In this document: positions 265 through 63,496 of the stretch, piece by piece
Position numbering within the stretch: the stretch's first letter is position 1
Layout: every line of letters starts with the position of its first letter
Origin: Amoebidium appalachense
Taxonomy: Eukaryota > Protista > Ichthyosporea
DNA length: 64,000 nt
Reading direction: 5' to 3'
Assembly (NCBI GenBank): GCA_963693365.1
Contig: CAVNZM010000018.1
Coordinates: 2,146,728 to 2,210,727, forward strand
The notes under the pieces: model-generated
Told to the model about the DNA's origin: nothing
Database searches by the model: none
The model's input: only the letters and a program-made list of their open reading frames with translations
Program-made: the position numbers and the translations under genes

Positions 265-19263
<18,999 letters not shown>

Positions 19264-21681: not shown

Positions 21682-22382
21682 TTTTTGAATGCGTCAAAAA
21701 GTACGAAGTACACAAGAACAAACGGATAACACGATGCAGAATGCAAGCCATACATAAAGAGGATGCATAATAAGCAGAGCCCATCCTCAGGGGGGGCCCA
21801 CGTCATCCACAGTACCCGAGTTTCGACCTATTCCCCTCGTTAACGAAACCCAACTCAGATACTGTTTCACTTGAACATGAGTAGGTCACCCGTCTTGATC
21901 AGAGACGAGCAGGGTTGCTTATGCAGGCAAGGGCAGTGGGAAAGGCCGGGGGTTAAAGTTGCAGCAGTAAGCAGAAGCAAGAAAAATATAGATAGGAACT
22001 CAGGAGACGGGGCTTCTAGGAAGCTCCCCCGTCGATACCTAAGTCGATACTTCCCTGGCTAACATACTACACCAGCTGAAAAGAATTAAGTCCCGAAGGC
22101 CGCAGAATTCGCAATCAGAGGGGAAAATATGAGATTTGACCCACGCCGCAGGGTAGTAACACGCTTACTAGGGCGGAACTTTATCGTCTTCGAACGGAAA
22201 GCTATGCCCCCGGATGTCAGCCGGAAATATGGTATCACCCATTGCTTTGGGCTTGAAAAAAGCCAAACCGATAGTCCGAGTTATGTTACGCCGGCGGGTA
22301 ACATGCCGCATGGGTTCCAAGGGAGCTGTCGCCAACAGAGCGGTGTGTGCATGCGTGCGCGTAACGCAATGTGTGAAGTGTG
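21682..22382 (-). mobile_element. Hammerhead-retroelement family 1, copy A (5'-truncated, Penelope-like)
   Basis: ~700 bp nearly identical to 61074-61768. It shares its 3' end (minus strand ...GACGCATTCAA followed by poly-C) with copies at 53836 and 55336, and is flanked by G/C-rich tracts on both sides. Confidence 0.85.
21770..21922 (-). ncRNA. Putative non-circularly permuted hammerhead ribozyme (family 1)
   Basis: Minus strand: GUU triplet 21854-21852, GAAA 21824-21821, CUGAGGA 21790-21784. Stem III ACAGUAUCUGAGU/ACUCGGGUACUGU, stem I GGG/CCC, stem II GACCUA/UAGGUC, closing stem AUAAGCA/UGCUUAU. Confidence 0.65.
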
Positions 22383-24082: not shown

Positions 24083-25081
24083 TCACTGGGTAGGGGTTTT
24101 GATAGCGGGTTCGGTTTTGGTTACTGGTGCAGGGTTGTAAAAGGGTGGGGGCAGAGGGAGTTCGTATCCGTATTCGGTCGGACAGAAGTTGGTTGGGGGC
24201 AGGGGGCCGCGTGGTTCGTTTTGCTGCGCCCATGCAGCCAGTGCGTCTCGATCGTATGCCCGGCCAGCCTCGGTGATTGAAACGAAATAGCCGAGACATT
24301 TCCTAAGCCGAACTGAAGCAGAAGTATCTAGTCGCTGCGCCATAAAGGGGTTGGGTAAACGGGATCTGCGTGTTTGGAAGGAGGCACCTATGCACCCCTC
24401 CTTCTCTGCTTCCACTCTATTCAAATAATCGCTAGGAAGGAAAAAGTTTAGGCGCCACAGTTTCTCTCGCTTTGGAATGTCCAGAGCCCTTATCACCTTG
24501 TCCCTCGCTAGCGCCGCTTCCACTTCTGTTGCGTAGGAGCCGCGGTAACCTTCCATCTTATACTGTAACAGCGCTATCCACGGTTTTTGAATGGAACTGG
24601 TGTGGTAGTACACGCCCTTGTACACTGATGATCGCGTCTTTGTTGTTTTCTTTGCCCACCACTCCTCCACCCAAGCCACATCATCGGCTGTTGGCTTAAA
24701 TTTGCGCAGATTCCCGAGACTAACATTTTTGAAATCCAGGTGTCTGTGAGGAAACACCCCTTTCTGCACCAAATAATCCATCGCTACATCCCGCTGGCGT
24801 GCAGCCATATGGATGTTGTCGTAGGATCCCACAAAAAATCTTCCTGCCCAAGCCCTCCACTTTCCCATGCTAATATCACATGTTACTCCACGGTAGAGCT
24901 GGCGTGTGTCTTTCACATTTCGGGTCGAGAAAGTACAAACGGGCATGCCGAGTGTCTGAGAGCCGTGCGCCGTTGCCTGCTGGGCCTTCCTTGAGTTACG
25001 GGGTAAAAGTGGAAATGCCTTTATATTGCCAGGGTGATTATTGAGTTCCAAGATGAAGCCAATCGTATGTGTTAACGCACC
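24083..25081 (-). CDS. AP2/ERF-like DNA-binding domain protein (three AP2-like repeats), large terminal exon
   Basis: 322-aa non-repetitive ORF containing [57 protein letters not shown] and [28 protein letters not shown]. In-frame acceptor at 25082-25083. A phase-compatible upstream exon lies at ~25497-25586, with probably more up to ~27600 (not resolved). Confidence 0.75.
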
Positions 25082-25145
25082 TGCACCTGATCCTTACAAT
25101 CATTTGTTTGCTTCAATCCGTAAGCGCTTTTTTTTTATTTTTTAT

Positions 25146-38212: not shown

Positions 38213-38248
<36 letters not shown>

Positions 38249-39237
38249 GATGTATGTGTTTGAGGGTTGGAAATATGGAGGAGACAACAACGAGCAACAA
38301 CAAAGCGTCACAAAGGTGGGAAATCCAAAATCAAACAATTTAAGCGTGCAGGCAGAAGACACTTGAACAGAGCCCATCATCAGGGGGGTTCCTATGCCTC
38401 CCCAAAAGCATGGGTTTCGACTCTTTAACCTCTTGCGTGTGGTTCCCAACCCATACTTTGTTTCAACAGCAATAGGCGAGTCCACCCGTCTTGGCCAAAG
38501 ACGAGCAGGGTTGTTCAAGGAGCAGCAATCTCAGAAAACAGAGTCGACAAAATCTGCAAGCAGACAAAAACCAAGAGAACAAGCAGAGAAGTAGAGCATA
38601 AGCCGGGCTTCTACAAGGCTCCCCGACTCCCTAACCGATAGAGAAGAGGAGCGAGGGGAGGGGGGGGGGGGGGGGGGGGGAGGGGGGGGAGGGAGGGGGA
38701 GAGAGGGAGGGGAGGGGGAGAGAGAGGGGGAAGGGGGCGGGGGGTAGGGGGAAGAGGGGAGGGGGGGGGGGGGGGGGAAATGGAGACAGAGAAAACAGGG
38801 GGGAACTTAACCTGGCAACTATTGCTTTATTAGAGGGTTACCCCACGTAATAAACCAATAGGTTTGACCCATGCCACTGGGGGGCAGTGCACCTGGGGGG
38901 GGGGGGGGGGGGGGGGGAGAAAGGGGGGAGGGGGAGGGGGGGGGGGGATGTCATCCGCCGTACTCAAGTGGGTGGGTGGGTGGATGAGTTCTATAGTGGA
39001 AAGGGCGGGGGGGGGGGGGGGGGGGGGGGAGAAGGGTGGGACCTCCACGAGCGAGTTAACACGTCTTGGGCACAGACGGAGGGGGGGGAGGGGGGGGGGG
39101 GGGGGGGGGGGGGTATATATCACCTTGAGTTGAGTTTGGGTGGGAGCTACTGCTGTAAAGATCCACCACACGTCAATCACAAAGGTGTCAGCGTAGGGCG
39201 CATTGGAACCCTGCGCACGGGTACGGTACACTAGCTC

Positions 39238-39413: not shown

Positions 39414-40001
39414 GATGTATGTGTTTGAGGGTTGGAAATATGGAGGAGACAACAACGAGCAACAACAAAGCGTCACACGGGAGGGGGGGGAGGGGGGAGG
39501 GGGGAGGGGGGGGAGGGGGAGGAGGGGAGGGGGAGGGGGGATGTGTGTGTGCATGTGTGTGTGTGGGGGGGGGGGGAGGGGGGGGGATGTGTGAGTGTGT
39601 GCGTGTTTGGGGGGGGGGGGGGGGGGGGGAGTGTGCGTGTGTGTGTGTGTGTGTACGTGTCCGCATGTGTGAATGTATTTGTTTGCGCAGGGAGGGGGGG
39701 GGGGGGGGGGGGGGGGTTGAATACGGAACACGGTACGAAGTACGCATACACGAAGGACACATGCAAAGGCAAACATTCAAGTATGCAACATCAGCCATGC
39801 GCACAGTATGCGTCATAAGCAGAGCCCATCCTCAGGGAGGGCCCAAGTCATCAATTGCGTCTGAGTTTCGACCCCTTAGCCCGCGTATATACGACTTTTC
39901 AACTCGAACAGCAGCATCAACTGAACTTGGGAGGGTCACCCCGTCTTGATCAAAGACGAGCAGGGTTGCTTATGCAAGGTGAGCAAAACGGTAAAAGGGG
40001 G

Positions 40002-40038
<37 letters not shown>

Positions 40039-41099
40039 AGAGGGTGATGTATGCATTAGAGGGTCGGAGATATGGAGGAGACACCAAAGGACAAAAATGT
40101 AAAACGTCACAAAAGCACAAAAAAAACGGAATAGAGCCATAAAATAGAAGTAATAATGATAAAAAGGCAGAACAGACTTGAACAGAGCCCATCACCACGG
40201 GGGTTCCTATGCCTCCACCAGAGGGGGGGGGGGACAGATGAGGGGCAAAGCTGTCGCAGGAAGGGTGTGGGATGTGGGAATGGAATGGGTGTGTGTGTAG
40301 GGGGGGGGGGGGGGGGTCTATACTTGTCGGAATTCCAGTACACTCTGTGCCACTGTTCCACCGGAAGCTTGACCATCCCGACAAGGGGAAGGTCCTGCGG
40401 GGGGGACACAAAGTTGATCTTGCGCTGAAGGCAGCAGGCATCGGGGGATACCTCCCACTTGCTGTGGGTGTACTCTGCCATATTTGGAAAAAAATATACT
40501 ATTAGTGAATCAGCCAAATCTCCCTTTTGGTGTGGGTATACTTGGCCATTTTTGGAGAATTACCATTGGTGATTCAGCCAGACCTCCCATATAGCTACTT
40601 TCTTTTAGTATTTTCTAGAAACGTTTTGGCGTGGGTATACTCTGCGTTTTTCTTTTTTAATTTTCATTAGTGATTCATAAGGGTTGTGGGAGTTGGACGT
40701 TTTTAGCCGTATTTGGAAAACTTCCGGGGGTTTTGACGTCCTTCCCAGTCGTTTTTACTCAGTGAATGCCCTTTTTCTATAGTATTGGGGTTTTTTTGAT
40801 AACATAAATATGATGTTGTTGGGTCGCAATAGATAGTGAATCAGCCAACCACTGGGTCCAACGGGTAACCATATTAGGTTATATGTGTTGTCAATAGCTG
40901 AGAAATGTGTGTGGGGGGGGAAATGGGACATTCAGAGAAGGGCAAGTCTTCACTAAAAATTACCCCCGTCTTTTTTTCGTCTTTTTTTCCTTCCTTTTTT
41001 TTGTTGCTTTTGAACACAACTGTGTTGGATTTACCCGAAAGGATTGGACATTTAGAGTTTTTTTTTCTTTTTTTTTCTTTTTCTTTCTTTTTCTTTTTT

Positions 41100-41168
<69 letters not shown>

Positions 41169-41568
41169 AGGGGGACAAAAGGTGACAAGTGTGTGTGTGT
41201 GTGTGTGTGTGTGTGCGGGGGGGGGGGGGGGGGGGGGGGGGGGATGTTGAGCACACACCCTGCAGCGGGTGTTGCATGAGAGGATCTGTCACCATGTACA
41301 TGTCAAAGATATCGTTGTCTGTGTCATCGCTGAAAAACGACGGTACAATGTCTTCGAGTTTGCATGTTAGGACAGTCTCGAAGACACCTTCGTTGGTGTT
41401 CCTGTGTGTGGGTGGGTGTTTTGGGGAGGAGGGGGGCGGGGGGAGGGGGGGGGGGGGGGAGAAGGGGGAGGGGGGGAGGAGGGTTGTGTGTGTGGAGGCG
41501 GGAGGGGGGGGGGGGGAGGGTGTGTGTTGGGAAGGGGGGGAGAGGATGGGAGGGGGGGGGGGAGGAGG

Positions 41569-45992: not shown

Positions 45993-46693
45993 CTACCACT
46001 CGAAATCCGGGTCCTCCTCAATTTCGGCCGCCGCCCATTGGAATTTGGCCCGGAGGGTCTTGTTGAAGATCTTTTCGATTGGCAGACCAACCTTGTTACA
46101 CCTGCCAATCAAAAAACAGTAAAGTATGAGATTACTATATATGGGCCAAACAAACCATTGTAAGATTACTATATATGGACAAAAGAAATAATTGTATGAT
46201 TAGTATATATGGGAAGTCATCATTCTTTGCCTGGAGGGGTTTGCGTTATATACCCCCCCCCCCCCCCCCCCCCCCCCCACAAAAAAAAAGAAAAACCCCC
46301 TCCACAAAAAAGAACAACAAATATTAAACTACTTAATTCTCATAATAAGAAAGGTACATATTGCACAAAAACTGAAATATACAAGAACAAGAGGTGTGGC
46401 TATTAGTAAATGGCGTGTACTTATAATTTCAGTCCTGAATTCTCAGAAATGGGGTGATGCGACATCTGCATGAGATGGTGGTGGCGGTTGCAACCCCCCA
46501 TTTTATTTATTTATTTATTTATTTATTTTTATTATTTTTTTTTTTTGTTGGGGGGGGGGGGGGGGGGGGGGGGGGAGAAGAAGAAAAACGTACCATACAC
46601 ATGTACGCCATATTATCACAAGAGGTAACCAATGAAGCGTGCAGACAGGACAAACTTGCACAGAGCCCAAAATAGTTTTTTTTTTTTTTTTTT

Positions 46694-46724
<31 letters not shown>

Positions 46725-47117
46725 TTTGAATGCGGAACACAGTACGAAGTACGCATAGACGATGAGAAGCATGGTGCAGGACACATGCAAAGGCAAACAT
46801 TCAAGTATGCAGCATCAGCCATGCGCACAGTATGCGTCATAAGCAGAGCCCATCCTCAGGGAGGGCCCAAGTCATCAATTGCGTCTGAGTTTCGACCCCT
46901 TAGCCCGCGTATATACGACGCTCCAACTCAGACAGCAGCATCAACTGAACTTGGGTGGGTCAACCCGTCATGATCAAAGACGAGCAGGGTTGCTTATGCA
47001 AGGTGAGCAAAACGGTGAAGATGTGTGTGCAAACTAATGCAGTGCAGCGACAAACGCGTATGTGCTTACAGATGCACGAAACAGAGCAACCATGCCCGGT
47101 TGCATGGAAGTAAAGAT

Positions 47118-47151
<34 letters not shown>

Positions 47152-47259
47152 GAAGAAAAACGTACCATACACATGTACGCCATATTATCACAAGAGGTAA
47201 CCAATGAAGCGTGCAGACAGGACAAACTTGCACAGAGCCCAAAATAGTTTTTTTTTTTT

Positions 47260-50662: not shown

Positions 50663-53123
50663 AAAAAAAAAAAAGGAAGAAGAAGAAGAAGAAAAACCTC
50701 GGCCAACCACAAACCCCCATCACATTTTAGCACATGGCAAAAGTCTGTCAAAGCACGCACACACACCCATTTTGACAGAGAAAAACGGCCAACTATTAAA
50801 TCTTAAACCAACCACCGCTTCTCCCATTTTAGCGTCTGGCCGCTGACCAGCCGAGAGCCACATTTCTCAAGTGCGTCTCACCAATCATGAGACTTAATCA
50901 AATTGTGTCACATGCCGATGTCGACATACGACAGAGCCTTTCGCGCCCTTTTCAGGGCGACACGGCGTCATGGAATTTGTGCACAAAATGACGTCACCAA
51001 TGTGGCTCGCCGCCCAGAGGCTAAAACGGAAGTAGCGGTGGTTGCTTTAACACAAACCAACAGCATGCCAATCTCTACGCATGGACTTCAAAGCAGAGAA
51101 AAATCAGCCAATCGCAAACCCTAACTATATTGTAACAAATGCCGACAATCAGTCGAACAATTCTGCCAAGAGCAGAATTATTCTGCTGAAGCAGAATCAC
51201 ATGCATGCGCTCATACGAAAACAGACAAAAACCAGGCCCCGCGCCCCGCAAAATACACATGCCTAAACAAGAAGAAAGGGAAAAAGAAGAAAGAAAAAAA
51301 GAAAAAAAAAAGGAACCAGCCAATCACAAACCCCCATTATATTTCAGCGCACACCAAGTCTAGCGCACGCAAGCTAAAACAGACAGAAAATGAACCAGCC
51401 AATCCCAAGCGCCCGTTAAAACATCAAAATTTTAACACATACCGACAGCCTTTCGAAGAGCATGTTCTCTATATCCTTGTTCTTTCTGGACAGTTTGACG
51501 TTCTTCGCGAATATGTGCAAACGACACACGAGAATACGCAGAGGGAAACAGAGAAATAACAACCAACCTCAACCTCTCCTACCCCTTCTACGTTTTCAGC
51601 GCATAACGCCAACCCGTCGAGCACGTGCACACTCAGCACTCAGACAAAAACAGACAGAAAATGAACCAGCCAATCCCGAGCTCCCGTTAAAAATTTAGGG
51701 CATGCCGACAACCTGTCGAGCAGGCAAAAACAAACAGAACATGAACCGGCCAACCCCAATCCCCCGTTAAGAAAAATTGAAACGTACCGAGAGCCTGTCG
51801 AAGAGCATGTTCTCCTTGTCCTTGTTGTTTCTGAACAGTCACATCCCAGCGTGTGCACAAGAAGTCACACACACACACAACTTACAAACATGATCACGCA
51901 CACAAAGACGCGCACACAAAAACAAAAACAAAGAGAACTAACCAATCACGAGACCACGTAAAAAATTTCAACACACACCGGCAACCTGTCGAGCACGCGC
52001 ACACTCAGCAGTCAGACAAAAAAAAAATCCCACAAAATGAACCGGCCAACCACAAGCTCCCGTTAGATTTTAGCACATTTTAACACATACTGAGAGCCTG
52101 TCGAAGAGCGTGTTTTCGGGTCCTTGTTCTTTCTGAACAGTCACATCCCATCGTGTGCCCAAGAACTCACACACACACACACACAACTTACAAATGTGAC
52201 CTGCAACACACAGACGCGCACACAAAAACAAAAACAAAGAGAACCAACCAATCACAAGCCCTCTTTAAAATCTTATAATTTAACACATACCGACAGCCTG
52301 TCGAACAGCATGTTCTCCTTGTCCTTGTTCTTTCTGAACAATTTGACGTTCTTGTAGACCTGGGGGATGACAGTGACCTGGTTCTGGTAGCGGATACTGT
52401 CCTTGCCCAAGAAGTCGAAGGCTACCTGGTCTGGTTCAATGAGCTGTGTACGTGTACATGTGGGCATGTGTATGTGTGTGTGTGTGTGTGTGTGTGTTGG
52501 GGGATGGGGGGGGGGGGGGGGGGGGAGGGGAGGAAGAGGGGGGAGGGAGCGAGGGGAGGGGGGAGGAGGAAGGGTGTGGTGAGTGAGTGAGTGTGTGAGT
52601 GAGTGCGAACGTGTGTGGTGTGCGCAAGCCGGACGGGTAGGTGGGTGGTGGAAATGAGACACACAGTATGCAAACATGCTCACATACACACATGTAGACA
52701 TGTGCACACCCGCACATGGCACACGCACACGTGTTCACCCACACCTGCGTTTACACCCACACCCAAAACCACATCACAACCACACCCACAACCACATAGA
52801 CACCCACCCATACACCCACATCACCCCCCCCCCCCCCCCCCCCCCCCCCCAAACACACACACACCACATACACAGCGAGCACGCATCATACAGCGAAAAA
52901 ACACATGAGCAACCGTCCACTCCCCCCCCCCCCCCCCCCCCCCCCCCAACACACACACACACACGTACACACATACATTCACACCACCCTCAACCAGCAG
53001 AAGCCCACCATATCCAACCCCACACCCACTTCCACATTAACCCCCCCCCCCCCCCCCAAAAAAAAAAAAAAAACACACACACACAGCAAACACGTATCAT
53101 ACAATTTCAAAATCCGTGAGCAA

Positions 53124-53683: not shown

Positions 53684-54107
53684 TAGAAAAGAAGAAGGAG
53701 AGAAAAAAAAAGAGGTCAGGCCGGGACCGGGCACGTCGAGGAGGCAGCAAGATGGGGTGAGGATTGGGTTGGAATGGGGAAGGGGGGGGGGGGGGGGGGA
53801 AGGAGGGGGAAGAAGAGGGTGGGGTGGGGGGGGGGTTTTTGAATGCGTCAACAAGTACGAAGTACACAAGAACAAACGGATAACACGATGCAGAATGCAA
53901 GCCATACATAAAGAGTATGCATAATAAGCAGAGCCCATCCTCAGGGGGGGCCCACGTCATCCACAGTACCCGAGTTTCGACCTATTCCCCTCGTTAACGA
54001 AACCCAACTCAGATACTGTTTCACTTGAACATGAGTAGGTCACCCGTCTTGATCAGAGACGAGCAGGGTTGCTTATGCAGGCAAGGGCAGTGGGAAAGGC
54101 CGGGGTG

Positions 54108-55260: not shown

Positions 55261-55609
55261 TATATTAAGTATTGGACGGCGGCGAGAGCAAAAACTAAAG
55301 AATTTAGGGGGGGGGTGGGGGGGGGGGGGGGGGGTTGAATGCGTCAAAAAGTACGAAGTACACAAGAACAAACGGATAACACGATGCAGAATGCAAGCCA
55401 AACATAAAGAGTATGCATAATAAGCAGAGCCCATCCTCAGGGGGGGCCCCCGGGGGAAGGAGATAAGGCGATTACCTTAATAAGACCCATCTTAGGGTGC
55501 TCACCACGGCCACGGAAGAGGCCGGGAGGTTCGACCATAAAGTTGCCTACACGCTCACGGTGCCCGTCTGTACGTGTACGCATGTATGTACGTGTGTGTA
55601 CGTGTGTGT

Positions 55610-56277: not shown

Positions 56278-57947
56278 CGTGCATACTTTTCGTTTGCTTG
56301 TGTGTGTCAATGTGTGTGTTTGTGTGTGATTAGAGAATCCGTTTCACACATCGATATCCACCTGTAGTGTACACACACACACACAGACAGACACACACAC
56401 ACACAGACAGACACACACACACACACACACAAAAAGAAAGAAAGAAAGAAAGAAAGAAAAACCCACACAATCACGTGCATCAAAACACGTGTAAGTGGGC
56501 ACATCCTTCCCGTTCAAGTGAACAGAACGTGGCCCACCTCCACCAGAGCAATGCCCACACAACTACTCGAACACACACACACAAAAACTCGCCAACACAC
56601 ACCCCCCCCCACCCACCCAAACATCCCCCCCCCCCCCCCCCCCCCGGGGCCCTACACACACACAGAGGCGAAACCCTTACCATTTCTTCCAGTCTTTGAT
56701 CAACTTCTTCTCCTCCGGGCTCATGTACTGCAACCCACCCTACGTTAGTCCTACACCCACCAAGTTAGGAAGGGGAAGGTAAACCAAACATGTAAAATGA
56801 TTCAAACTTTACAAAAAGGGATAATCTTCCGTTTTCCTGCCAGTCGTTGAATAGGTTGTTGGTGAATATGTGGCTAGCCTTTGGAGGGTAATGGTAAAAG
56901 TATAACTATTTGTAAAAACTAAAAACAATAAAAAGGTAACCTCCCTTGAAGAAGTGTATGTGTCCTTGCTTGCATAGAAGAGAAGGGGCCGTAAAAATAA
57001 AACCATCTTAAATCTTAATTTAATAATTAAAAGGTTTCTTCTTGCGTTTTCCTGGCAGTCCTTGAAGAAAAATGTTAATAATTCGGTCCTTGCTAGCATA
57101 GCAGAGGGGGTGATGTATGCATTAGACGAAGAAGGGGGGAGGGGGAGTGTGGGGGGGGGGGGGGGGGGGGGGAGGGCTAAATCCATTAGAAACCAATTTT
57201 ACGATTTAATATTAAGATTTAAACGAGTATAATCTTACGTTTTCCTGCCAGTCCTTGAAGAAGTTGTTTTTTGAATATGTCCTTACTTGCATAGTGGACA
57301 AGGGAGGGGAAGGGAGATGGGGTACAACTAAACCGATCTTCAACCCCTTTTAACTTTAATTTTAAATTTAAAGGGATTAAATTAATATTCAAAGTGGTAT
57401 AACCTCACGTTTTCCTGCCAGTCCTTGAAGAAGTTGTTTATGATTATGTCCTGGCTAGCATAGGGGAGGGTGACCGTAAACCTAAAAACATGTAAACCGT
57501 GATTTAAAATCTAAATACAATAGTATATTTTGAAGGGTATTATTCTTACGTTTTCCTGCCAGTCCTTGAAGAAGTTGTTTATGAATATGTCCTGGCTAGC
57601 ATAGTGGAGGGTGACCGTAAACCTAAAAACATGCAAACCTTGATTTATAATCTAAATACAATAGTATATTTGAAGGGTATTATTCTTACGTTTTCCTGCC
57701 AGTCCTTGAAGAAGTTGTTTATGAATATATCCTTGCTAGCATAGTCTGTCTTGATCATGGCCGCATAGAACCCGGCAACCTCCTCGCTCTTCTCACACAG
57801 GTCCACCGGCTTGCCTGTTATGGAAGGCAAAATCAGATTAAAATAAGAAAAAGGGGGGAGACAAACTAAAAAGGGGGAAAGGGGGATGGGTGGGTGGGTG
57901 GGGGGGGGGGGGGGGAGGGGGGGGGGGAAACATGCTATGGGGGGCTC

Positions 57948-61039: not shown

Positions 61040-61075
<36 letters not shown>

Positions 61076-61873
61076 TGAATGCGTCAAAAAGTACGAAGTA
61101 CACAAGAACAAACGGATAACACGATGCAGAATGCAAGCCATACATAAAGAGTGTGCATAATAAGCAGAGCCCATCCTCAGGGGGGCCCACGTCATCCACA
61201 GTACCCGAGTTTCGACCTATTCCCCTCGTTAACGAAACCCACCTCAGATACTGTTTCACTTGAACATGGGTAGGTCACCCGTCTTGATCAGAGACGAGCA
61301 GGGTTGCTTATGCAGGCAAGGGCAGTGGGAAAGGCCGGGGGTTCAAGTTACAGTAAGCAGAAGCAAGAAAAATATTGATAGGAACTCAGGAGACGGGGCT
61401 TCTAAGAAGCTCCCCCGTCGCTACCTAAGTCGATACTTCCCTGGCTAACATACTACACCAGCTGAAAAGAATTAAGTCCCGAAGGCCGCAGAATTCGCAA
61501 TCAGAGGGGAAAATATGTTTTGACCCACGCCGCAGGGTAGTAACACGCTTACTAGGGCGGAACTTTAACGTCTTCGAAAGGAAAGCTATGCCCCCGGATG
61601 TCAGCCGGAAATATGGTATCACCCATTGCTTTGGGCTTGAAAAAAGCCAAATCGATAGTCCGAGTTATGTTACGCCGGCGGGTAACATGCCGCATGGGTT
61701 CCAAGGGAGCTGTCGCCAACAGAGCGGTGTGTGTCCATGTGTGCGCATAACGCAATGTGTGAAGTGTGTCTATAGTTATGAGAGGGGGTATGCAGAAGTG
61801 GACAGATGAAGTGTGTGGAGAGAAAAACAGTAGGAAGAAAGGTAGACACCGGTGTGTGCAACCCCGCACAACA

Positions 61874-62480: not shown

Positions 62481-63496
62481 CTTACCTTCTTAGGAGGCGC
62501 TTTTTTCTTCAGATTCCTGGAAAAAAAAAAAAAAAACCTTGTTAGCTCTCAACTTAAATTGCGAAACGATAGGTCACATTCCACCAGATGCTTATCGTCT
62601 TTACCCGTCGCATAGCAACAGGCCCTCATCCTATCTATGCGCTCACACACAATAAAAACGAAAAAAATAAACTAGAAAAGAACGAAAGAAACGTGCAGGC
62701 AGAAGACACTTGAACAGACCAAATCATCAGGGGGATTCCTATTCCTCCACCCGGAGGGGTGGGGTGGAGGGGGGTTTGAATGCGGAACACGGTACGAAGT
62801 ACGCATACACGACGAGAAGCATGGTGCAGGACACATGCAAAGGCAAACATTCAATTATGCAACATCAGTCATGTGCACAGTATGCGTCATAAGCAGAGCC
62901 CATCCTCAGGGAGGACCAGGGGGGGGGGGGGGGGGGGGGGGGGCTACCCAATGGGGATATCGTCATCCGAGTCGGAGGACTCGGCGTTACGTTTCTTCGT
63001 GTCTTTCTTCTTCTCTTCCTTCTTCTTTTCTCCTTTTTTCTTTTCCTCCTTTTTTGGCTCCTTCTTCACCTCTTTCTCCTTCTTATTCTCCTTGGGTTTG
63101 GCCTCCTTTTTGAGTGCTGCATTTCCAGGTGGGACGGTGTTAGTATATAATAGAATATATAGTATAATATAATAGAAGGTATAACATACTACAAAATGAT
63201 ATGATATAGTATAATATACTATATAACATAAAATAACAGACATGAAGTGGAGTTGAAGATGAAAACATTTAGGAGGGAATGCCCATGCCGTCTCATCCAT
63301 CCCCCCTCCCTCCTCCATCCCCCCCCTCCCCCCCCCCCCCCCCAAAAGGAGGATTCTACATACGAGATCTAAACACTCCCCCCACCTCCCCACCCACCCG
63401 CCCACACACACACACCCATACACACAGACACCTTCCCCTCCCCCCACCCCCGCTCCTCCCCTCCCCTCCCCCCTTTCTTTTTGGCTGGGATGGGGT

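Follow-up and report, generated by a model that had tools for sequence, protein, structure and literature searches.

Hammerhead ribozymes of types I–III arrange their conserved blocks in the cyclic order C (CUGANGA), G (GAAA) and S (UH). Non-circular permutations have been published by Eckert et al. (2023, PMC10085705); in the passages of that paper covered here, the six permutations assume an uninterrupted CUGANGA block with its stem II strand adjacent, and the non-circular forms come almost only from unassigned environmental sequence. One of them, type SGC (HRIMA-1 and variants), appears there as an RNA of ~80 nt from metatranscriptomes with demonstrated cleavage, two core pseudoknots, a stem II strand within 1–2 nt after CUGANGA, a short unpaired linker (3–4 nt) leading to the stem II strand that precedes GAAA, and an extra helix 'I' that connects the distal ends of stems I and II. 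In the pseudoknot-containing hammerhead of Zhan et al. (2024, PMC11300833), helix II likewise forms by a pseudoknot and the core is unchanged; its blocks follow the classical order, the stem of one loop is made of A9, G10.1, C11.1 and G12, and the passages covered here describe no opening at A9/G10.1. That site tolerates an extra base in hammerheads (PMC1636495, PMC3705267, PMC4209133), as seen in a viroid hammerhead, in which a U there raises the rate 3–4-fold (PMC3705267), and in Penelope hammerheads, which retain such a base (PMC4209133).

Among mobile elements, canonical Penelope type I hammerheads and non-LTR retrozymes (PMC4209133; 10.64898/2026.07.22.740005) are described, in the parts covered, as lying in the tails of Penelope-like repeats, with the classical cyclic order, a very short stem III, a base between 9 and 10.1, a palindromic loop, tandem arrays and non-autonomous derivatives. 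The Naiad and Chlamys elements of Craig et al. (2021, PMC8557442) show 5' truncation and insertion into microsatellites, Naiads preferring (TA)n and Chlamys (C)n and (CA)n; the portions of that paper covered here list Naiads from animals only and report no canonical hammerhead in them, marking only 'HHR_core' or 'HHR_half_core'.

We analyzed a window of 64,000 nt of chromosomal DNA from the ichthyosporean Amoebidium appalachense, for which an initial annotation had proposed a hammerhead core with its blocks in the opposite cyclic order. Judged from sequence, the motif is a real and new variant of the non-circularly permuted hammerhead in a non-animal host, with cleavage predicted. We consider it probable that a rewired hammerhead core, with a predicted cut after GUU, lies in the tail of a high-copy, non-coding Amoebidium repeat, which is likely a non-autonomous Naiad-type Penelope-like element. 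The annotation had stated that natural non-circularly permuted hammerheads have been reported but are rare, and the passages of Eckert et al. describe such permutations (PMC10085705). Set against these published forms, the linear order here is that of type SGC, whereas the wiring of the stem II strand differs.

The blocks run S, G, C, so types I–III are excluded. With type SGC the motif shares this order, the two core pseudoknots, the short unpaired link before GAAA and a counterpart of helix 'I', which we term P4. It departs from type SGC in that the strand covarying as stem II lies upstream rather than directly after CUGANGA, in that a gap in the chain at A9/G10.1 is bridged by helices P0 and P0b and a hairpin, in that the helix 'I' counterpart is linked to stem III on both strands via a kink-like loop, and in its size of ~155 nt; it is also chromosomal DNA of a named eukaryote with predicted cleavage. 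Nor is it a tandem type I hammerhead of the Penelope/retrozyme kind: the order is reversed, stem III is long and the copies are dispersed. The openly available full-text literature searched yielded no description of this wiring or of Naiad hammerheads, and neither is described in the passages covered from PMC13159263, PMC13725137, PMC10162972, PMC6765202 and 10.64898/2026.07.22.740005. New here are the non-animal host, the C-run targets, the GUU site, loop palindromes that vary in concert, and copies lying in sense orientation within introns of the DNA topoisomerase I gene (TOP1). As a natural form, at high copy in a culturable eukaryote, that breaks the assumption of an uninterrupted CUGANGA, the motif implies that descriptor searches must allow more.

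Copies of the motif and the repeat that carries them

A scan of the window with the pattern GUCGAAAC...CUGANGA gave exactly six matches, all on the minus strand and at the coordinates claimed in the initial annotation. They form three families (family 1, n = 3; family 2, n = 2; family 3, n = 1), and their 5'-3' block order is UH, GAAA, CUGANGA (S-G-C), as had been proposed. The elements are as follows.

21684..22381, minus strand: ~700-bp element of family 1 in which no coding remnant is recognisable and whose 3' end adjoins a C-run
21770..21922, minus strand: rearranged hammerhead of family 1, intact (pattern, descriptor, stem pairing)
38248..38640, minus strand: family 3 copy, intact layout at 38363-38518
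39717..39995, minus strand: family 2 copy, stem I broken (ribozyme 39815-39973)
46726..47117, minus strand: family 2 copy, intact layout at 46839-46997, sense in the last TOP1 intron; 5' end approximate
53836..54105, minus strand: family 1 copy, 5'-truncated, intact ribozyme layout at 53924-54076, sense in a TOP1 intron
61074..61767, minus strand: full family 1 copy, cleavage triplet GGU, likely dead, sense in a TOP1 intron
55335..55452, minus strand: short 5'-truncated copy, C block and tail only
Starts near 62917, 62749, 62219, 61012, 41849, 40220, 38155 and 36627, minus strand: other short copies
Starts near 18129, 5881 and 1908, plus strand: other short copies

A descriptor combining the upstream stem II strand, UH, GAAA and CUGANGA, with stems of at least 3, 4 and 4 pairs, recovered four of the six copies, against one match in 200 dinucleotide-shuffled windows. 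It returned the three predicted cut sites that had been claimed (21852/21851, 46925/46924 and 38448/38447) and placed a fourth at 54006/54005. The hammerhead core letters C3-U-G-A-N-G-A9, G12-A-A14, A15.1-U16.1 and H17 are complete, with their stems, in four of the six copies. The claim that all copies keep the GUU triplet fails for the copy at 61160, which lacks U16.1 (GGU rather than GUU), and the copy at 39815 has lost stem I; these two decayed copies are the ones that the descriptor misses. On family 3, the 40 of 44 variant rows listed (runs X1 and X3) include none at a core position; 8 map to the ribozyme (156 nt), and the tail (108 nt) has 14 variant positions.

None of the 150 of 191 whole-window Rfam matches listed is a hammerhead, and in a local scan the best hammerhead was Hammerhead_1 at 14.2 bits (E 4.2; gathering score 34). 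The comparison with Rfam models that the annotation had proposed thus stays below gathering (14.2 vs 34), yet this match pairs the same upstream strand as stem II. Pattern matches in metagenome (9 loci) and viral contigs (12 + 44 loci) were set aside as chance, 0 of 65 fitting model R1.

The family 1 element at 21684..22381 and the copy at 61074-61767 are 96.7% identical over 700 nt and share their ends, and the ribozyme sits 170–200 nt from the 3' end of the repeat. A profile search of the window found 18 copies at E < 0.1 (a 19th match, E 0.44, was left out), 6 with the whole layout and 12 short; 16 of the 18 end at a C- or CA-run. Copy number is high, with 10,866 contigs of run X1 aligning on family 1 and 2,792 contigs of run X1 and 1,020 of run X3 aligning on family 3. 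Adjacent copies cluster at 61–63 kb and 38–40 kb, and one contig of run X1 contains a head-to-tail joint of family 3. The longest frame of the family 1 element has no homologue, and no reverse transcriptase or endonuclease was found among the 146 of at least 237 window frames scanned; neither a GIY-YIG endonuclease nor a CxC motif was present in these 146 frames either, parts that a non-autonomous element would in any case be missing. A CPEB3/HDV-like Rfam match in the 5' part of family 1 (22101-22189, minus strand; 13.6 bits) was rejected, P1 and P2 not being formed by eye.

All 12 short copies are 5'-truncated within the 3' part of the ribozyme. Seven of them start 15–32 nt before the extra U that follows A9, in P4 and the kink strand, and none of the 12 starts at the predicted cut, 69–73 nt before that U. 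The cluster has a post hoc binomial probability of ~1e-4, calculated for a 16-nt window though the span is 18 nt, and with tail-only fragments uncounted; it fits stalling of a reverse transcriptase at the fold. Microhomology between the stem I C-run and the target was discarded as its cause, as several letters of the element remain at the junctions upstream of that C-run.

Three further features of the repeat were observed. A short motif ~110 nt upstream of the ribozyme is common to families 1 and 3 despite their differing flanks (22030-22060 and 38600-38630, minus strand). Two identical 97-nt repeats at 46579-46675 and 47151-47247 (minus strand), preceded by A-runs, begin with the same GGGCUCUG tail start and are a further family of the element. 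One contig of run X1 represents another family, which differs in the letters of stem III but shares GAUGAC ahead of P4.

Strand wiring and covariation of the core

Read 5' to 3', the RNA starts with a closing strand, followed by CCC, a hairpin and the G10.1-bearing strand of stem II; next come P4, UGA, and a stem III strand with GUU, then a stem I strand, a palindromic linker, the other stem II strand, GAAA, the other stem III strand, a bulge with GA, and P4, and last a stem I strand, CUGANGA, U, GGG and the closing strand. In the intact family 1 copy these parts lie as follows.

21916..21922, minus strand: closing stem P0, 5' strand, pairs 21770-21776; 7 bp, 3 double changes in family 3
21912..21914, minus strand: helix P0b, 5' strand CCC, pairs GGG 21780-21782 just after A9-U (RNAalifold; invariant)
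21888..21910, minus strand: hairpin P0a directly 5' of G10.1, palindromic loop UGAUCA, UGGCCA in family 3 (RNAalifold)
21883..21887, minus strand: stem II 5' strand GACCU, G10.1 = 21887, detached from CUGANGA (15/15 Watson-Crick cells; Rfam match)
21875..21881, minus strand: helix P4, 5' strand, pairs 21797-21803, joins far ends of stems I and II (RNAalifold)
21867..21869, minus strand: UGA that contributes to a K-turn-like motif linking stem III to P4; opposite it, a 3-nt bulge with GA near 21805-21811
21852..21865, minus strand: stem III 5' strand and GUU triplet, predicted cut 21852/21851 (descriptor, pairing)
21849..21851, minus strand: GGG strand of stem I (GGAG in family 2), located 3' of the cut and paired with 21791-21793; register ambiguous
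21837..21846, minus strand: linker palindrome, between the strands of stems I and II; 10-nt in families 1 and 2
21809..21829, minus strand: stem II 3' strand AGGUC, G12-A13-A14-A15.1, stem III 3' strand (pattern, pairing)
21783..21793, minus strand: stem I strand, C3-U-G-A-N-G-A9, extra U (pattern, pairing)

The stem II 5' strand lies ~100 nt upstream of CUGANGA instead of adjacent to it, an arrangement absent from the initial annotation. Together, sequence and covariation show the backbone of the predicted core to be interrupted between A9, which one extra U follows, and G10.1, a gap that standard searches overlook. The earlier reading is supported as to the hammerhead core, the non-circular S-G-C order, the pseudoknotted fold and the predicted sites; it missed the A9/G10.1 opening and also omitted two more helices, the K-turn-like motif and a carrier repeat whose wiring is matched in Naiads.

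The pair counts use one intact copy per family, anchored on the motifs, and compare three related families only, too few for a significance test; a MAFFT alignment, which puts stem I of family 2 and also stem II of family 3 out of register, was unsuited to these counts. The stems pair as had been written, and their strands change together between families 1, 2 and 3, with a caveat on the register of stem I. Closing stem P0 is paired in 21/21 cells with 3 double changes, stem II, built with the upstream strand, in 15/15 cells, all Watson-Crick, with 2, stem III in 24/24 with 3, and stem I (3–4 bp) in 9/9 with 1; the total is 9 double-change pairs in P0 and stems I–III, with no broken variable pair across the three families. 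In slid registers, Watson-Crick cells reach at most 7/21 for P0, 5/15 for stem II and 8/24 for stem III, whereas the register of stem I is ambiguous, slid registers reaching 8/9.

The nested RNAalifold consensus comprises P0, P0b, P0a, P4 and stem III and contains 41 pairs, of which 11 show a double change; save for two weak pairs, the strands of stems I and II take no part in it. Since this scaffold leaves these strands free, they would have to pair as pseudoknots. P0b and P0a are both invariant here, and the case for them therefore comes from folding and from by-eye readings of Naiads; P0b recurs with other letters in Naiad tails in the portions of the PMC8557442 supplement covered. P4 sits 1 nt after the stem II strand and before the stem I strand, and an A>G variant at 21880, at ~45% of depth in run X1, converts a U-G pair of this helix to C-G. 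In family 1 the strand after the cut has a competing pairing with the GAAAC strand. Nested folding energy is no better than that of shuffles (z -0.4, -1.1 and -0.9, for 150-nt pieces that lack part of P0).

A K-turn consists of a canonical stem, a 3-nt bulge and tandem G-A/A-G pairs. Between stem III and P4 the UGA is invariant in six of six copies; the K-turn-like fit is clear in family 2, and in families 1 and 3 the canonical stem amounts to one pair plus a bulge.

Naiad and Chlamys counterparts

We read Naiad and Chlamys sequences by eye only, at four NCGAAAC words (79 occurrences) and six C-block words in the portions of the PMC8557442 supplement covered. The split wiring appears in seven Naiad consensus records: three near-identical ones from Acropora, two from Octopus, and one each in file parts 12 and 19, which by their order are Morbakka and a crustacean, respectively. 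The letters of their stems bear no relation to those here, and P0b and the hairpin are kept. An unsplit C-S-G form occurs in seven other Naiad records, six of them nematode by order and one in part 16; the latter, since it includes both the extra U and the joining helix, is a circular permutant of the Amoebidium form. That split and unsplit forms are mutual circular permutants suggests how such wiring may arise in tandem retroelements. Limulus and Darwinula Naiad tails (file parts 13–19) contain further S-G-C-like variants by eye. Type CSG, the unsplit form of the nematode Naiads, was known before from only two metagenomic sequences. In the Chlamys file, the NCGAAAC places shown held no split wiring by eye, a search that leaves other G-block contexts and line-broken motifs outside.

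Because no reverse transcriptase was found in the 146 window frames, the carrier clade is inferred, and the tie to Naiads is drawn from the RNA wiring and the insertion pattern. The latter includes the frequent 5' truncation (12/18 short) and the ends at C- or CA-runs (16/18) typical of Naiad and Chlamys elements as described in the parts of that paper covered. Chlamys and derivatives such as MRC1 likewise combine (C)n/(CA)n insertion and 5' truncation with short non-autonomous forms and non-animal hosts, and the C-run targets, a Chlamys trait, count against the Naiad-type reading, as Naiads prefer (TA)n. The element here also differs from the Naiads in its ichthyosporean host, its lack of coding capacity and its GUU triplet, the triplets seen by eye in Naiad tails being GUA or UUC. 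We regard the repeat as a likely Penelope-like retroelement of Naiad type, and a non-autonomous one. If Amoebidium does have a Naiad-type tail, the group would reach beyond animals. The split wiring offers a direct answer to why Naiads seemed to be without hammerheads in the passages covered from Craig et al. (PMC8557442).

Proposed mechanism, alternative readings and host genes

Sequence and covariation show a nested scaffold (P0, P0b and P0a; P4, the internal loop and stem III) that frees four short strands; these pair as stems I and II in two pseudoknots, and P0b and P0a rejoin the chain ends across the A9/G10.1 gap. In the mechanism that we propose, the kink between stem III and P4, whose fit is best in family 2, may turn the chain around so that it reaches the distal ends of stems I and II, and would thereby overcome the geometric difficulty noted for type SGC by Eckert et al. 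in the passages covered (PMC10085705). Cleavage after GUU would follow the usual hammerhead chemistry, with G12 as base and the G8 2'-OH as acid, as described in the portions of PMC11300833 covered. P0, P0b, stem II, P4 and stem III together span the cut with ~30–35 bp, so the products should stay together; cleavage would yield a held-together, probably re-joinable nick rather than two free pieces. Activity is probably slow or switched, given the GUU site, a stem I of 3–4 bp, loops whose palindromes might bring two RNAs into pairing, and perhaps a protein. GUU is a weaker hammerhead triplet than GUC or GUA. Likely roles would be the trimming of read-through or tandem transcripts and the marking of a 3' end for a partner's reverse transcriptase, which would copy the RNA into C-runs and often stall at P4. 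For the anole Penelope hammerhead, a protein is needed to cut and the ribozyme is dispensable for insertion in vitro, according to the parts of PMC11167929 covered, which by analogy would count against a ribozyme role in insertion.

The main reading has to accommodate the short, sliding stem I and the flat folding z along with the lack of truncation at the predicted cut and the GUU triplet. The latter two would be expected if the fold were real but no longer cut, being kept as a 3' recognition structure for a reverse transcriptase or a K-turn-binding protein; copies with intact layout in sense orientation within TOP1 introns, and hammerhead mutants without effect on anole Penelope insertion in vitro (parts of PMC11167929), also point that way. 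This reading is unlikely, as all catalytic letters are fixed in three families whose stems differ freely, and the 40 of 44 variant rows listed for family 3 include no core variant. A cutting ribozyme could account for the sense copies, since held-together products, a GUU triplet and a short stem I could make intronic copies harmless; nicking that leaves the two halves attached to each other would explain why the introns of an essential gene tolerate them.

Two fixed loops hold palindromes that change in step between families. The P0a loop reads UGAUCA, or UGGCCA in family 3, and the linker has different 10-mers in families 1 and 2 and, only with the majority letters of run contigs, a 6-nt palindrome in family 3; palindromes of at least 6 nt occupy 1.6% of positions as background, and the loop positions were picked after the fact. 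They may switch activity via dimers, as in canonical Penelope hammerheads. A stronger version, in which the ribozyme works only as a dimer, two RNAs meeting via the palindromic loops and swapping strands to build the core, draws on these changes at both loops, on the dimeric action of canonical Penelope hammerheads (in the portions of PMC4209133 covered) and on one run X1 contig with a head-to-tail joint of family 3. It is improbable: stem III is long (8–13 bp), so no dimer is forced, most copies in the window are solitary, the loops of the Naiads inspected are non-palindromic by eye, and the cofold gain of 10–14 kcal/mol is expected of any hairpin-rich RNA.

We give still less weight to an ordinary type SGC hammerhead, in which block C would be unsplit and stem II formed by GGCUC after CUGANGA with a 2-nt insertion. 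This strand pairs as stem II in 14/15 cells, with 4–6 bp per family, and Eckert et al. allow 1–2 inserted bases (passages of PMC10085705); only 9/15 cells are Watson-Crick, however, with no double change, and its duplexes (-2.2, -3.5 and -4.4 kcal/mol) compare with -5.4, -7.1 and -5.0 kcal/mol for the upstream strand, whose covariation would be left unexplained. In Acropora and Octopus Naiads the strand after CUGAUGA is unable to pair as stem II by eye. A chance match of short motifs within an ordinary repeat, already disfavored despite the common ancestry of the three families and the want of an Rfam hammerhead at gathering score (among the whole-window matches listed and in the local scan), is scarcely credible against 4 descriptor matches vs 1 in 200 shuffles, 9 double changes, and animal Naiads that show the same wiring by eye with unrelated stem letters.

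Beyond the rewired, cutting core that we favor, we tentatively entertain a bolder combination as possible: a seventh hammerhead wiring outside the six permutations, its core broken at A9/G10.1 and restored through an inserted junction together with a kinked helix, which would act as a stapled, reversible nick switched by loop-loop dimers and would mark a Naiad-type lineage in Ichthyosporea, whether by pre-animal ancestry or by transfer from arthropod hosts.

The TOP1 exons (63006-45996, minus strand) match an Amoebidium parasiticum EukProt protein, mostly at 93–100% identity, and the copies within their span are sense in 8 of 8 cases, two with intact layout. In the first 19 kb, 3 of 3 copies are on the plus strand, as is the local ABCA-type gene. 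C-run strand bias (24 vs 14 and 36 vs 33) accounts only partly for the sense orientation. The main text of the Amoebidium genome paper, in the parts covered (PMC11244446), contains no 'Penelope', 'PLE' or 'ribozyme', and its supplements may annotate such elements. Several other features of the window were observed alongside. ABCA-type transporter exons lie at ~3100-17700 (plus strand), and TOP1 has decayed extra exon copies, that at 57815 being echoed at 57615, 57462 and 56926 and that at 52449 at 51874 and 51505. Exon-like stretches at 41254-41400 and near 40326-40400 (minus strand), for which no homologue was found, belong to a gene at 33–46 kb; because this gene could not be named, its strand is read solely from splice-like flanks. 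Finally, a 336-codon frame at 24083-25093 (minus strand) has a weak AP2-domain match (Pfam E 6e-4, below cut-off), its nearest Atlas clusters being AP2 (score 0.93, low recognition), and is possibly a double-AP2 gene or a mobile gene.
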